Source of the DNA: a phage | DNA: 64,000 bases | Sequence record: NC_042307.1 | Reading direction: 5' to 3' (one strand) | Notes under the pieces: generated by a model | What the model saw: the letters and a program-made list of their open reading frames with translations, nothing else | Databases searched by the model: none | What the model was told of the DNA's origin: nothing | Made by a program: the position numbers and the translations under genes | In this document: one piece after another, positions 28,017-32,715 of the stretch | Layout: each line of letters begins with the position of its first letter | Position numbering within the stretch: position 1 is the first letter of the stretch

Positions 28017-28891
28017 TGAGTAAATCCTGGGGAAAATTTATTGAAGAGGAAGAAGCTGAGCTGGCTTCTCGTCGCAACCTAATGATTGTTGATGGAACTA
28101 ACTTAGGCTTCCGCTTCAAACATAATAATAGTAAGAAACCCTTCGCTTCAAGTTATGTTTCTACAATTCAATCTCTCGCAAAATCCTACTCAGCTAGAAC
28201 TACAATCGTTCTTGGTGATAAAGGAAAGTCTGTATTCCGTTTAGAGCACCTTCCTGATTATAAGGGCAACCGTGATGAAAAGTATGCTCAACGTACAGAA
28301 GAAGAGAAAGCACTAGATGAACAGTTCTTTGAGTATCTTCGTGATGCTTTCGAGTTGTGTGAAACCACATTCCCAACTTTCACTATTCGTGGTGTAGAAG
28401 CAGACGATATGGCAGCTTATATTGTTAAGCTCATAGGGCATTTATATGATCATGTTTGGTTGATTTCTACCGATGGTGACTGGGATACTCTATTAACTGA
28501 TCGAGTTTCTCGCTTCTCCTTCACCACACGTCGTGAGTACCATCTTCGTGATATGTATGAACATCATAACGTTGACGATGTAGATCAGTTTATCTCTCTG
28601 AAAGCAATTATGGGAGATCTTGGTGATAACATCCGTGGTGTTGAAGGCATCGGTGCAAAACGTGGTTATAATATTATCCGTGAATTTGGTAATGTTCTGG
28701 ATATTATTGATCAGCTCCCTCTGCCTGGGAAACAGAAATATATGCAGAATCTAAATGCATCGGAGGAGTTGCTTTTCCGAAATCTGATTCTGGTTGATTT
28801 ACCGACCTATTGTGTAGATGCTATTGCTGCTGTGGGTCAAGACGTATTAAATAAGTTTACGAAAGATATTTTGGAGATCGCGGGACAATGA
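28016..28891 (+). CDS. 5'-3' exonuclease / flap endonuclease (T5 D15-like)
   Basis: 291 aa; N-terminal NLMIVDGTNLGFRF and C-terminal H3TH region AIMGDLGDNIRGVEGIGAKRG; closely matches my recollection of T5 exonuclease. Confidence 0.9.
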   Translation: MSKSWGKFIEEEEAELASRRNLMIVDGTNLGFRFKHNNSKKPFASSYVSTIQSLAKSYSARTTIVLGDKGKSVFRLEHLPDYKGNRDEKYAQRTEEEKALDEQFFEYLRDAFELCETTFPTFTIRGVEADDMAAYIVKLIGHLYDHVWLISTDGDWDTLLTDRVSRFSFTTRREYHLRDMYEHHNVDDVDQFISLKAIMGDLGDNIRGVEGIGAKRGYNIIREFGNVLDIIDQLPLPGKQKYMQNLNASEELLFRNLILVDLPTYCVDAIAAVGQDVLNKFTKDILEIAGQ

Positions 28892-29334
28892 TTAAAATTA
28901 AACTAACTCATCCAGATTGCATGCCAAAGATTGGTTCTAATGATGCCGCAGGTATGGATCTGCGTGCATTCTTTGGTACTAACCTTGCAGCAGATTTACG
29001 TGCTATTGCACCAGGCAAATCCCTTATGATTGACACCGGTGTCGCGGTGGAAATTCCGCGAGGTTGGTTTGGTTTGGTAGTTCCTCGCAGCTCTTTAGGT
29101 AAGCGTAAACTGATGATCGCAAATACCGCAGGAGTGATCGACTCAGACTACCGTGGTACTATTAAGATGAACCTGTTTAACTACGGTTCTGAAATGCAAA
29201 CTCTGGAGAATTTCGAGAGACTTTGTCAGCTAGTGATACTACCATACTACTCAACACATCATTTTGAAATCGTTGACGAACTAGAGGAGACTGATCGTGG
29301 AGAAGGCGGCTTTGGAAGCTCAGGAAGTAAGTAA
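28888..29334 (+). CDS. dut: dUTP diphosphatase
   Basis: 148 aa; dUTPase motifs AAGMDLRA, RSSLG, GVIDSDYRG, RGEGGFGSSG. Confidence 0.9.
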   Translation: MIKIKLTHPDCMPKIGSNDAAGMDLRAFFGTNLAADLRAIAPGKSLMIDTGVAVEIPRGWFGLVVPRSSLGKRKLMIANTAGVIDSDYRGTIKMNLFNYGSEMQTLENFERLCQLVILPYYSTHHFEIVDELEETDRGEGGFGSSGSK

Positions 29335-29586
29335 TTTTGTTGATCCTAATCAAATAGAGATTGATGCTAATCAACACCCTAATTTCTATGGTGTGATTGT
29401 AGCACCCCCCTACCCTTGATAAGGTAGTACTAAAAGTGGATATGTTTGGCAATATGGAGCAATGGAAAGAAGAAGGGTTTATTAAACTGTGTTCTTAGTC
29501 TCAAGATCCTACCCTTAGGGCTATGCTTGCCGTGTATAACTTAGGTATTATCGCAGGTAGTAAAGAGTAATAAAACCCCCCCCCCT

Positions 29587-29616
29587 CCAGTGGACAATCC
29601 ACTGGGGTTTTCTCTT
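29587..29616 (+). terminator. rho-independent terminator closing the plus-strand early operons
   Basis: ccagtgg-acaat-ccactgg followed by ggttttctcttattt; preceded by a C-run. Confidence 0.5.
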
Positions 29617-29782
29617 ATTTAGTAAGGAGTTGTTTTACTAATTCCTTTAGTTTAGTAATCTTTTGTACTGAGAGGGTGCAAAACGAACCTCTTGCATTTT
29701 GTGTTTTCATATGTACATAAGAACAGCCTAAGAATCAGCGAACTGTTAATACAGTAGAACATGCATTGCGTTGCTAGGATAA

Positions 29783-29962
29783 TCAAAATTCAGGCTTGTT
29801 TCGCAGCAATATTTTTTCAGTGGCAAGTTGCTCCTGGAATGCTGTACGCTGTTGATCAAACGACTGAGCAGAGATCGCGCCAGCGATGGTACTAGTGCTA
29901 GAGGTGATCGCAGTGTTCAGCTCTGCAAAACCCTGGACAGACGCCAATAGGTTTTGAGTATT
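29783..29962 (-). other. in-frame coding-like continuation beyond the TAG (59 codons to TGA at 29783-29785), no start codon
   Basis: Same frame as upstream ORF; translation NTQNLLASVQGFAELNTAITSSTSTIAGAISAQSFDQQRTAFQEQLATEKILLRNKPEF with coding-like codon usage. Confidence 0.5.
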
Positions 29963-30292
29963 CTATTGGGTAATAGCGTTCAGGTTCATTGCGCCTGTGT
30001 TAGCGATTGCCAGATTGGTTGCACCCTGACCCTGTACAACAGTTAGGCCCAGATTGTTCAGTCCGCTCTGAATGGATTCGATATCGCTTACCAGTGAAGT
30101 AGTCAGCATGTTTGCAGCAGTACCAGCAACGGAAACCGCGCCATCCACACCACCAACGCCAACACCACGACCACCCACACCATTACCTAACCAGGAATCA
30201 ATCAGCGCACCACTAAAAGCAGCGATACCAGGCATAGCACCGTCACCACCGAGACCGCCCATGTTGGTCGGTAAAAGAGTCCTGTCAGACAT
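29963..30292 (-). CDS. Gly-rich hypothetical protein ending at an in-frame TAG (amber) codon
   Basis: ATG at 30290-30292 with AGGAG RBS 8 nt upstream; MSDRTLLPTNMGGLGGDGAMPG...NLNAITQ then TAG at 29963-29965. Confidence 0.55.
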   Translation of the reverse strand: MSDRTLLPTNMGGLGGDGAMPGIAAFSGALIDSWLGNGVGGRGVGVGGVDGAVSVAGTAANMLTTSLVSDIESIQSGLNNLGLTVVQGQGATNLAIANTGAMNLNAITQ

Positions 30293-30412
30293 AGTAAACA
30301 CTCCTGAGAGTTGATTGTTAAACACATGTAACACGCACATTACGAGTTAAGCATAGTGCATAACAAAAAGTTTACCTGGCATCTGATGTAAAGTTTTGTA
30401 AAGTTAAAAGTG

Positions 30413-30444
30413 ATAAAAATACGCAGCCGAAGCCGCGTATTTTA
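30413..30444 (-). terminator. bidirectional-looking rho-independent terminator downstream of tail fiber gene
   Basis: Near-perfect 12-bp stem aaaauacgcagc/gccgcguauuuu with cgaa tetraloop, flanked by A-run and T-run. Confidence 0.6.
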
Positions 30445-30447
30445 GGA

Positions 30448-32715
30448 TTAAGGAAGGTCTTGATTTGGAGCGGGGTCTTCAGGTAGAGTGGTTGGTTTAT
30501 CTTCTAACAAAGACTCTAACTTACTGACACGGGCGCTTAGCACCTGGATAGCAGCAAGCGCATCCAGTAACAGCACGTTAGTATCAAGCGAAAGAATTGT
30601 ATTTCCCTCCTTGTCCTCGCTTGAGTGTGTGTATTCAGGGTCTATGGTTGCCGCTTGCTGTGCAATGATTCCACGACGTACCCGACGCTTTATATCATCT
30701 TTGAAGATAAACGTCACGAGCTCTAACTGATTGATGTTGTTTAACGCACTCTTACCGTCCCATGGCTCAACCTGTTCTTTATAATCAATGTCGCTTGTAG
30801 GATCCAGCGTTACTCGCCCAATACGAGTACTATCAATCCATACATCGACTCCCGGATTTTCCCACGAGAAAGAATAGCTATTTGCTTGGAAATTACCACC
30901 AATACCTCTACGGCAAATGACACCTGCCGAGGGTAAGAGAGTTGTTAAGCGAGTAGCATCGTAGGTATCTAAAACAGATCGTGCAGTTCCATCGTAAAAA
31001 TCTACACGAGCGGCGTACTGTGTCACCTGCCCCGCCCCATAACTCAACTCCATGTTACCGGACGCCTCTCCTGGCGCACCTGTGTTACGACTAATAATCA
31101 GGCTTCTAATATTAGACATTTCGCCAAAGTCGCTAAAAAGATACTCCCAGCTTTCACCGGACACTCGAGTAGGCTTAATGCAGGCATATGTGACGCTTCC
31201 TACTGTGTGGTTTACGTAAAAATCAGCAGTCGCCGTTCCGATACCATAGCCTTCTACAATTGATCGCCACGACCAACCCAAAATTTGACCTGTTGAGCCA
31301 GCAGGATAATAATGTTTAGTAGCAATCATGGCGGTCGCAGTGTCACCACCTTTGGACAGCGCCCCGATGTTGTTGCGAGCACCCTCTGCGTCCCAAGCTC
31401 CAGTGCCGCCCTGTCCTACTCCTAAAGGTTTAAATACATTACTAGTATCGTCATAGACACCCCAAGACCCTGTATCCATTACAACTAAGTTGTAGCGGTT
31501 TGTCGGGTCATAAATGCGGGAACTATCAGCGCTCTGTTTAAGACGATCCACACTTAGGTTTATACGAGCCTGTACCTTGTCACTTAAGTCTGCAAGGTTC
31601 TGATCCTTTAACAAAGATATGCTCAAAGTTTGTTCAGCTTTGTTTGCTGCGGTCTCAGCTCGAGTTGCGGAACTGGATGCTGCTACGGCTTGTTCTCCTG
31701 CGGTTGTAGCGCTTCCAGCCGCGGCTGTAGCCTGTTCTGTAGCCGTTACTGCCTTTTGTCCAGCTAAGGTGGCAGCGTCTTCCGCAGCTTGTTTTAACGG
31801 GGTGATTTCAGCAATTGCGTTTGCCTTAGCTGTGTCAATTGCTCCTACTGCGTCCGTCTTAGCTGCTCCAATCTCTGTCGCCGCACCTTCTTTAATGGTC
31901 TGAGTGTCCGCTTTAAGCTGTTCAACATCGGACTTAAGACCCTGTATTGTGGTCATAGCTTGCGTAGCTATGTTCGCGCTATCTGATGCACCTTGCTGAG
32001 CTAGCTTAGCAGCGTCTTCACTAGCTTTTGAGTTAATTTCGCTAGTCTTTGTATTAGTTTCTGAGTTTTTTGCTGCTAATGCTGATGTGGAGGCTTGTGC
32101 AGCGAATGCTTCTGCTTCATCCCTGAATCCTTTGGAGTCAGAAGCAGAGGCAGCGGAATCAGCAGCATTAGTCTCGCTAGTTTTTGCTGCTGCTGCATAT
32201 GCTGCTGCATTAGTCTCGCTAGTTTTTGCGTTAGTCTCACTAGTTTTTGCATTAGTCTCACTAGTTTTTGCTGCAGCTGATGATTCTAGAGCGTTAGTTT
32301 CACTAGTTTTTGCTGCAGCTGATGATTCTGCAGCTTTAGTAGCGGACGCAGCAGATTGAGAAGCAGAAATAGCAGAGGCATCGGCACTATCTTTAGATAA
32401 ACCAGCTTGTCTCTCCGCTTCAGTAGCAGAAGTAGCAGATTGAGTTGCAGAAGCTTCTGAAGAGTTAGCATAATTTGCAGATAGGTTCTCAGAGTCCTTA
32501 GCATTTATTTCAGATTCTTTTGCTGCAATTTCAGAATCTTTTGCAGCCGCAGCAGACTTAGCTGCTGCCTCAATAGAAGATACTAACTCACTTGCAGTAA
32601 TAGAGCTAATAGAATTACCTAGAGTTACTGTATATCTAGGAAACTTACTAGCAGTAGCTTTAGTATCGTCAATATTTAATATCTGTTGTACAATAATTTT
32701 AGTAGTTACTGACAT
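30448..32715 (-). CDS. L-shaped tail fibre protein with C-terminal intramolecular chaperone (peptidase S74-like) domain
   Basis: 755 aa; Ala/Ser/Thr-rich N-terminal repeats (AKTSETNA); C-terminal SDIDYKEQVEP...RGIIAQQAATIDPEYT...KLESLLEDK matches the auto-cleaving chaperone domain of endosialidases and T5 pb1. Confidence 0.8.
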   Translation of the reverse strand: MSVTTKIIVQQILNIDDTKATASKFPRYTVTLGNSISSITASELVSSIEAAAKSAAAAKDSEIAAKESEINAKDSENLSANYANSSEASATQSATSATEAERQAGLSKDSADASAISASQSAASATKAAESSAAAKTSETNALESSAAAKTSETNAKTSETNAKTSETNAAAYAAAAKTSETNAADSAASASDSKGFRDEAEAFAAQASTSALAAKNSETNTKTSEINSKASEDAAKLAQQGASDSANIATQAMTTIQGLKSDVEQLKADTQTIKEGAATEIGAAKTDAVGAIDTAKANAIAEITPLKQAAEDAATLAGQKAVTATEQATAAAGSATTAGEQAVAASSSATRAETAANKAEQTLSISLLKDQNLADLSDKVQARINLSVDRLKQSADSSRIYDPTNRYNLVVMDTGSWGVYDDTSNVFKPLGVGQGGTGAWDAEGARNNIGALSKGGDTATAMIATKHYYPAGSTGQILGWSWRSIVEGYGIGTATADFYVNHTVGSVTYACIKPTRVSGESWEYLFSDFGEMSNIRSLIISRNTGAPGEASGNMELSYGAGQVTQYAARVDFYDGTARSVLDTYDATRLTTLLPSAGVICRRGIGGNFQANSYSFSWENPGVDVWIDSTRIGRVTLDPTSDIDYKEQVEPWDGKSALNNINQLELVTFIFKDDIKRRVRRGIIAQQAATIDPEYTHSSEDKEGNTILSLDTNVLLLDALAAIQVLSARVSKLESLLEDKPTTLPEDPAPNQDLP
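32160..32330. repeat. imperfect tandem repeats of a ~24-nt unit (gcattagtctcgctagtttttgc) inside the tail fibre gene
   Basis: At least five copies visible between 32160 and 32330; encode AKTSETNA-type repeats on the minus strand. Confidence 0.7.

Follow-up and report, generated by a model that had tools for sequence, protein, structure and literature searches.

A very probably non-functional, multi-hit phrog_9288 pseudogene next to the lateral tail-fibre gene of T5-like Salmonella phages

Introduction

The A1 protein of phage Q-beta is produced by programmed read-through of a UGA codon, and its extension is intact, conserved and essential. Gene relics, for their part, occur at the mosaic boundaries of tail-fibre modules, as part of the mosaicism of tailed phages. 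The locus described here has features of both, and its intact homologues belong to the phage protein family phrog_9288. This family comprises 185 clusters, and the 120 listed are all uninterrupted proteins of 223-265 aa encoded on siphophage contigs of at most 72 kb. They occur in T1-like phages (Drexlerviridae), 9g/JenP1-like phages and related siphophages, in which the gene lies just 3' of the lateral tail-fibre gene. Homologues of the copy studied here include gp23 of the Tlsvirus PHB07 (Salmonella phage vB_SenS_PHB07; YP_009799777; an uninterrupted protein of 237 aa, encoded immediately 3' of the tail-fibre gene), gp76 of Escherichia phage aaroes, and the metagenomic proteins P0028 and P0111, whose contexts are T1-like (primase, S74 fibre, phrog_9288 gene, small ORFs, Erf). 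Phage BHUENT9 is arranged like PHB07. In a family alignment (A1), the members share a Gly-rich N-terminus, an invariant CCC, the conserved stretches QAVLICDLK and NFKLPTPPTPP, and usually a PTPPTPPTGCC(GC) tail.

A full-text search found no literature on this gene, and the BASEL paper does not comment, for this gene, on the label "putative sugar-binding protein" that some records of BASEL phages bear. Searches with the intact family gave sub-threshold noise only against Pfam and no match against NCBIfam and PADLOC; photosystem II extrinsic proteins, returned by a PDB profile search with E-values of 0.03 or worse, were judged spurious. An AlphaFold2 monomer model of the intact protein (pLDDT 49.8, pTM 0.20) had a disordered N-terminus, with pLDDT values under 50 at residues 1-84, and one helix from residue 85 to residue 222; the protein may thus be an oligomeric coiled coil or fibrous.

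Here we analyze a 64-kb stretch of phage DNA (record NC_042307.1, 64,000 nucleotides; hereafter the window) in which a first-pass annotation, made from the sequence alone, had described a Gly-rich ORF on the minus strand, interrupted by a TAG codon and followed by 59 further sense codons in the same frame. Amber read-through, an amber mutation of the sequenced isolate and a recent nonsense truncation had been put forward as explanations, together with the guess that the product could be a fibre accessory or assembly protein.

Results

Organization of the locus

Re-reading and translation of the minus strand reproduced all the coordinates and sequence features of that description (29783-30292), and the ORF list confirmed the placement between the dUTPase and tail-fibre genes. 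The features of the region are, from the fibre gene to the dUTPase gene:

30448-32715, minus strand: lateral (L-shaped) tail-fibre gene encoding 755 aa, with an intramolecular chaperone domain at the C-terminus
30416-30443, minus strand: intrinsic terminator directly 3' of the fibre gene, with a 12-bp stem, a UUCG loop and a U-tract
30293-30415, minus strand: conserved leader with the ribosome-binding site, preceding the ATG at 30292
30305-30301, minus strand: ribosome-binding site AGGAG, with an 8-nt spacer to the ATG (30292-30290)
29966-30292, minus strand: segment A, codons 1-109, Gly-rich N-terminal part, matching phrog_9288 (E 5.6e-18)
29963-29965, minus strand: in-frame TAG, at a Gln codon position of the family (Q103 of P0001)
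29783-29962, minus strand: segment B, 59 homologous sense codons, in the same tblastn HSP as segment A
29812-29817, minus strand: poly-A run (A6), site of a -2 frameshift with respect to the ancestral frame
29668-29811, minus strand: segment C, relic of the C-terminal helix region in a shifted frame, second tblastn HSP
29608-29667, minus strand: probable last remnant of the gene, recognized by eye in the frame translation
29572-29607, no strand assigned: hairpin CCCCAGTGGATTGTCCACTGG, then a G-run and a T-run, with a plus-strand terminator-like site at 29585-29607
28888-29334, plus strand: dUTPase gene

Translation from the ATG gives 109 sense codons, the last residues being NLNAITQ, before the TAG (29965-29963); the 59 sense codons that follow (NTQNLLASVQGF...LLRNKPEF; NTQNLL...RNKPEF) end at a TGA (29785-29783). 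As had been noted in the first-pass annotation, this downstream segment has no start signal of its own: it contains no ATG, and its sole alternative start, a TTG at 29947, is not preceded by a Shine-Dalgarno sequence, though it is the start of a 54-aa ORF in some GenBank records. Of the window's stop-to-stop intervals, 3.1% were open for 59 or more codons, compared with 2.1% after shuffling. Taken by itself the open frame after the TAG is thus only weakly unusual, and it is homology that decides.

The 755-aa fibre protein carries a Pfam Peptidase_S74 domain at residues 641-695 (E 6.3e-10) and matches the tail-fibre family phrog_5481 (E 3e-143). An S74-chaperone fibre gene also invariably precedes the intact phrog_9288 gene, as in PHB07, in BHUENT9 and in the P0111 and P0028 contigs. 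Synteny is the sole support for the fibre link of the earlier guess; no function could be assigned. With the fibres that adjoin intact homologues, the window fibre has only the S74 end in common (42% identity over ~100 aa); joint import of fibre and gene from a T1-like donor was considered and rejected on this account, and no donor module could be named.

The terminator behind the fibre gene folds with -16.3 kcal/mol (z = -6.2), a value matched by none of 200 shuffles, and a consensus scan revealed no sigma-70-like promoter between it and the ATG. Because the intact homologues have an equivalent terminator and a partly conserved leader of ~150 nt, this layout is ancestral and silent on expression either way, and we did not accept the terminator that precedes the ORF as a sign against expression. 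The leader was the least variable part of the locus, and the whole 155-nt spacer between the fibre stop codon and the ATG (30293-30447) had one variable site among the 8 phages that share it; in the same alignments, the density of variable sites was 5.8% in segment A, 9.0% in segment B and 12.4% in segment C. Either a function of its own, as a terminator or regulatory leader, or hitch-hiking with a recently spread fibre allele would account for the low variation of the spacer.

At the other side, the hairpin and G/T-run at 29572-29607 mark the end of the relic and probably constitute a terminator acting in both directions, between the dUTPase and late units, which converge here. The G-run (around 29576-29585) is itself of variable length: it reaches about 10 G in the window and in the phages nearest to it, and only about 4 G in several others. 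Between the dUTPase gene and the relic there are candidate small ORFs of 40-58 aa (window 29297-29419, plus strand); their annotation is inconsistent among relatives, the equivalents being orf23 of S126, polluks_41 and AGC_0145 of Eps7.

Homology across the stop codon and further lesions

The window comes from a T5-like Salmonella phage of the genus Epseptimavirus: Megablast searches against GenBank phages showed 95-99% identity to phages of this genus, among them S126, ende, beppo, SE19 and S147. When the conceptually joined protein was used as a tblastn query, the close relatives were matched in one piece, and matches to many siphophages of ~50-60 kb extended across the stop position (query residues ~70-163). 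In a collection of 5.8 billion proteins, the nearest intact relatives were two proteins of 245 and 247 aa, P0028 and P0111; the former is 69% identical to the joined query, of which the alignment covers 97%. Like PHB07 gp23, these homologues are uninterrupted. In a converse tblastn search, PHB07 gp23 matched the region 29300-30400 in two HSPs lying in different frames. The first covers residues 1-154 with 57% identity over 160 residues (E 8e-58) and has the TAG inside it, whereas the second, in the other frame, covers residues 148-202 with 49% identity (E 1e-11) and contains 3 in-frame stops. A repaired conceptual sequence showed 65% identity with the intact P0111 over 155 residues spanning both the TAG and the frameshift.

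The intact homologues have Gln at the position of the TAG (...AITQQNTQNLLASVQGF...). P0111 and P0028 read AITQQNTQNLLA there (longer stretch ...NTGAMNLNAITQQNTQNLLA...), PHB07 reads ITNQNTQNLLA (...STFNGITNQNTQNLLASVQGFAGLNTAITQSTNTIAGAIASQSFDQQRTAFEAQLAAERCCCETNLNIERQ...), and the corresponding Q103, in P0001 numbering, is an invariant column of alignment A1. The presence of Gln where the window has TAG implies that the 59 downstream codons are truly homologous to the family, and a single C-to-T transition from CAG to TAG would explain the stop.

Homology and stops both continue beyond the TGA, a fact absent from the first-pass annotation: another frame reads KKYCCETSLNFDYPSNAMHVLLY*QFADS*AVLMYI*KHKMQEVRFAPSQ..., and the switch of frame is located at the A6 run (29812-29817). 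Phages polluks and gmork have A8 there, and their frame continues as ATEKKYCCETSLN, like AAERCCCETNLN of the intact proteins. As the frame is open into the relic where the run has eight A, the shift in the window is attributable to homopolymer slippage, and the TGA of segment B is an out-of-frame stop reached through the poly-A frameshift. Segment C (YCCETSLN...QFADS.AVLMY...MQEVRFAPSQ) holds the stops TAA (29746-29748), TAG (29728-29730) and TGA (29707-29709). In the stretch 29608-29667, LLN.RN..NNSLLNKRKP can be set against ALNCKINQVEQLVNFKLP of the family, a resemblance too weak for a significant HSP, and three further stops probably lie at about 29640-29650. The C-terminal third thus contains at least three stop codons, probably six, plus small indels.

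The window copy combines a significant similarity to the phrog_9288 profile with the expected position 3' of a Peptidase_S74 fibre gene, and differs from every listed member in not being a single ORF, as it is broken by the TAG at codon 110, by the -2 frameshift and by at least three more stops. For comparison, the intact protein matches the same profile with an E-value of 1.7e-124. The invariant C-terminal residues of the family (C154, C155, C156, Q181, A182, I185, D187, K189, P229 and P230 in P0001) are out of frame and partly substituted in the relic (YCCETSLN...QFADS*AVLMYI*K), which has no counterpart of the PTPP tail.

Distribution of the lesions among Epseptimavirus phages

The window and 16 GenBank genomes, out of roughly 40 copies in GenBank, were aligned; these 17 Epseptimavirus copies originate from Denmark, Canada, Germany, Poland and China. 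The identical TAG was present in 17/17. Leader, ribosome-binding site and ATG were likewise kept in all 17, whereas the ORF of segment A was intact in 15 and the 59 downstream codons were open in 16. The exceptions are SE19 and SE20, with an additional G inside segment A at about codon 89 (+1), and KKP_3831, with an additional A (+1) about two codons past the TAG; in SP_Thor, segment A is shortened in frame by a deletion of 6 nt. The poly-A run measures about 6, 7, 8, 10 or 14 A depending on the phage, and the relic of the relatives contains more 1-nt indels, a 14-nt indel and a copy-number difference in a CAAAATG heptamer (around 29690-29700), of which there is one copy in the window and three in Eps7 and SB9. 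The poly-A, poly-G and heptamer tracts vary in length among phages that are 95-99% identical. Within segment A, the Gly-rich GVGGRGVGVGGVDG coding repeats (window 30130-30190) expand and contract in frame among relatives: rokbiter (P0126) has a GRGVGAGGRGVGA duplication, the 6-nt deletion of SP_Thor lies in these repeats, as does one in P0124, and the GenBank records of bux and rokbiter annotate a repeat_region there.

In two phages, Eps7 and SB9, the fibre gene has another 3' region and the 5' two-thirds of the pseudogene (segments A and B) are missing, with the 3' relic still in place. Their relic reads LLC*QFADS*AVLMY, and the first two stops of segment C are common to all Epseptimavirus copies. 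Since even these two phages share them, the stops in LL[Y/C]*QFADS*AV are probably the oldest lesions, and the relic appears to mark a fibre-module exchange boundary. In SB9 (Salmonella phage vB_SenS_SB9) the relic is in tandem duplicate (L009:1204-1401 and 1502-1672), with the same two stops in each copy, and the first copy begins about 10 nt past the end of a different tail-fibre gene.

The survey of lesions was based on GenBank phages and on the protein collection. In the latter, all matches of at least 89% identity were proteins of 107-110 aa on contigs of 104-114 kb, and no T5-like contig with an intact copy was found among the matches listed. This allele was found neither in IMG/VR, by a protein-pattern scan and by an exact DNA pattern in which the first base of the TAG was left as N, nor in JGI metagenomes.

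Selection at the locus

Substitutions were evaluated by crude site counting in the window's frames, which ignores the tree and transition bias, so that the omega values are to be read as approximate. The functional neighbor, dUTPase, had 8 nonsynonymous and 18 synonymous substitutions (omega 0.13; p = 8e-7 against neutrality). On the other hand, segment A had 12 and 7 (omega 0.62; p = 0.22), and segment C, the dead relic, 20 and 8 (omega 0.59, or 0.90 in an 8-phage subset; p = 0.15). Segment A differed from dUTPase (Fisher test; p = 0.04) and did not differ from relic C (p = 0.75), and segment C differed from dUTPase as well (p < 0.01). For segment B the counts were 9 and 7 (omega 0.40; p = 0.064 against neutrality, 0.12 against dUTPase and 0.34 against relic C), comparisons that are underpowered at 16 substitutions. 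The substitution patterns at the locus fit neutrality, with selection relaxed compared to dUTPase.

tRNA genes and suppression

ARAGORN detected no tRNA gene within the 64-kb window. In the whole genome of the sister phage S126, none of the 28 tRNAs has a CUA anticodon, while the set includes tRNA-Gln with CUG and with UUG anticodons. Epseptimavirus isolates have been grown on many different wild-type Salmonella hosts. As a side observation, S126 carries a 74-nt tRNA-like gene (MH370376, 65383-65456) whose UCA anticodon would decode UGA; its annotation is 'tRNA-Sec', it scores 33 bits against an Rfam threshold of 29, and it has several non-canonical pairs. A tRNA-Trp is absent among the 28 tRNAs, and the UCA gene could be an opal suppressor, a Trp-like tRNA or a decayed tRNA.

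Discussion

The stretch from 30292 to about 29610 on the minus strand is very probably a non-functional phrog_9288 pseudogene with multiple hits, dead throughout the Epseptimavirus lineage. Homology to an intact family is found here together with disabling lesions, relaxed selection and lineage-specific frame-breaking indels. The resemblance to phrog_9288 genes is extensive: identity amounts to 57-69% over the first ~160 residues and to about 49% over the relic, and the N-terminus (MSD.TLLPT), the Gly-rich region, the place 3' of the S74 fibre gene and the terminator-leader-RBS layout are shared. In contrast to those genes, which are intact over 225-258 codons and encode the CCC motif, a long predicted helix and usually the PTPPTPPTGCC tail, the window copy is broken and its C-terminal tail has been lost.

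The first of the earlier explanations to fall is an amber mutation private to the isolate, to which an error in sequencing or assembly can be added. All that favors it is the single in-frame stop itself, and the identical TAG in 17 independently isolated and sequenced genomes, and in all the annotated products of 107-110 aa, leaves it practically no probability. The uniform 107-110 aa of the proteins with at least 89% identity refutes a private mutation as well. Read-through of the TAG, at low level or programmed, for example by a near-cognate phage tRNA-Gln(CUG), to yield a functional protein of 168 residues has somewhat more in its favor, as the ancestral residue is Gln, S126 encodes tRNA-Gln genes of its own with both CUG and UUG anticodons, and the 59 codons are open in 16 of the 17 copies with an omega whose departure from neutrality falls short of significance in an underpowered count. 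We nevertheless regard it as very unlikely. The extension ends at a TGA made by slippage, and with a poly-A run of variable length the C-terminus would differ among phages; KKP_3831 has its frame broken two codons past the TAG; a CUA-anticodon tRNA was found neither in the window nor in S126; and the conserved C-terminal third is unreachable behind at least three further stops. Given the -2 frameshift and the later stops, suppression of the TAG would give a 168-residue product with a junk C-terminus and never the native ~240 residues. Common descent, with genomes about 95-99% identical at the locus, explains the shared TAG more simply. The same contrast separates the locus from Q-beta A1, which it resembles in having an in-frame stop followed by an open, coding-looking extension: in the window a frameshift cuts the extension short, the relatives do not conserve its frame, and the native C-terminus has been destroyed.

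The other alternative is that the 109-residue Gly-rich fragment still works after loss of the C-terminal two-thirds. The intact leader, AGGAG and ATG in 17/17 copies, the low variation of the leader, the uninterrupted ORF A in 15/17 and an omega of segment A below 1 speak for it. However, that omega resembles neutrality and the value of relic C and exceeds that of dUTPase. SE19 and SE20 carry a frameshift inside the fragment, indels affect the Gly-rich repeats of several copies, and Eps7 and SB9 lack segment A entirely. The fragment is also devoid of the most conserved columns of the family (CCC, QAVLICDLK and NFKLPTPPTPP), and disorder is predicted for the corresponding part of the intact protein (residues 1-84). 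A functional truncated gene is thus unlikely. Taken more broadly, the proposal that the remnant, as leader, ribosome-binding site and 109-codon ORF or as the 168-residue tRNA-Gln(CUG) read-through product, is a retained and neo-functionalised phrog_9288 derivative receives from us a low probability, if one marginally above that of the truncated gene. Of the earlier proposals, the recent nonsense truncation comes closest to the pseudogene described here: truncation by nonsense is essentially right, but it is not recent, nor is it the sole lesion.

A Gln codon has become TAG at position 110, and the poly-A run has slipped by -2. We propose either that the death of the gene predates the diversification of the genus, or that the relic has served fibre-module exchange as a recombination boundary. 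Segment A is likely the only part of the pseudogene to be translated. If the region is transcribed, the ribosome would probably make the 109-residue Gly-rich fragment and stop at the TAG, since the 5' leader, the ribosome-binding site and the ATG are intact; without the most conserved parts of the family, the long helix of the C-terminal region and the invariant CCC, this fragment would most likely be inert. The 59 codons after the TAG may look coding only because the time has been too short for their decay.

Among known systems, the locus is also comparable to the relics at mosaic boundaries of tail-fibre modules. As in those, a decaying fragment edges an exchangeable host-range module, and the fibre 3' region of Eps7 and SB9 abuts the same relic. 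It departs from them in that the family is otherwise found in other phages (Drexlerviridae and others), and in that successive states of decay have been preserved. These states (the TAG by itself, the TAG together with a slipped poly-A run, a frameshift on the 5' side, and a 5' part lost completely) make the locus a small, clean case of stepwise gene decay at the boundary of a host-range module.

In the GenBank records of the clade, the locus figures as "hypothetical proteins" of 109 aa, sometimes accompanied by a second of 54 aa, and the appropriate annotation is that of a pseudogene, derived from a gene of ~240 codons. The intact phrog_9288 protein is evidently dispensable to T5-like Salmonella phages. 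The more interesting question is the role of that protein in the phages that keep it next to S74-type lateral fibre genes, and the useful outputs of this analysis are the corrected annotation and a pointer to this uncharacterised, fibre-linked gene family.
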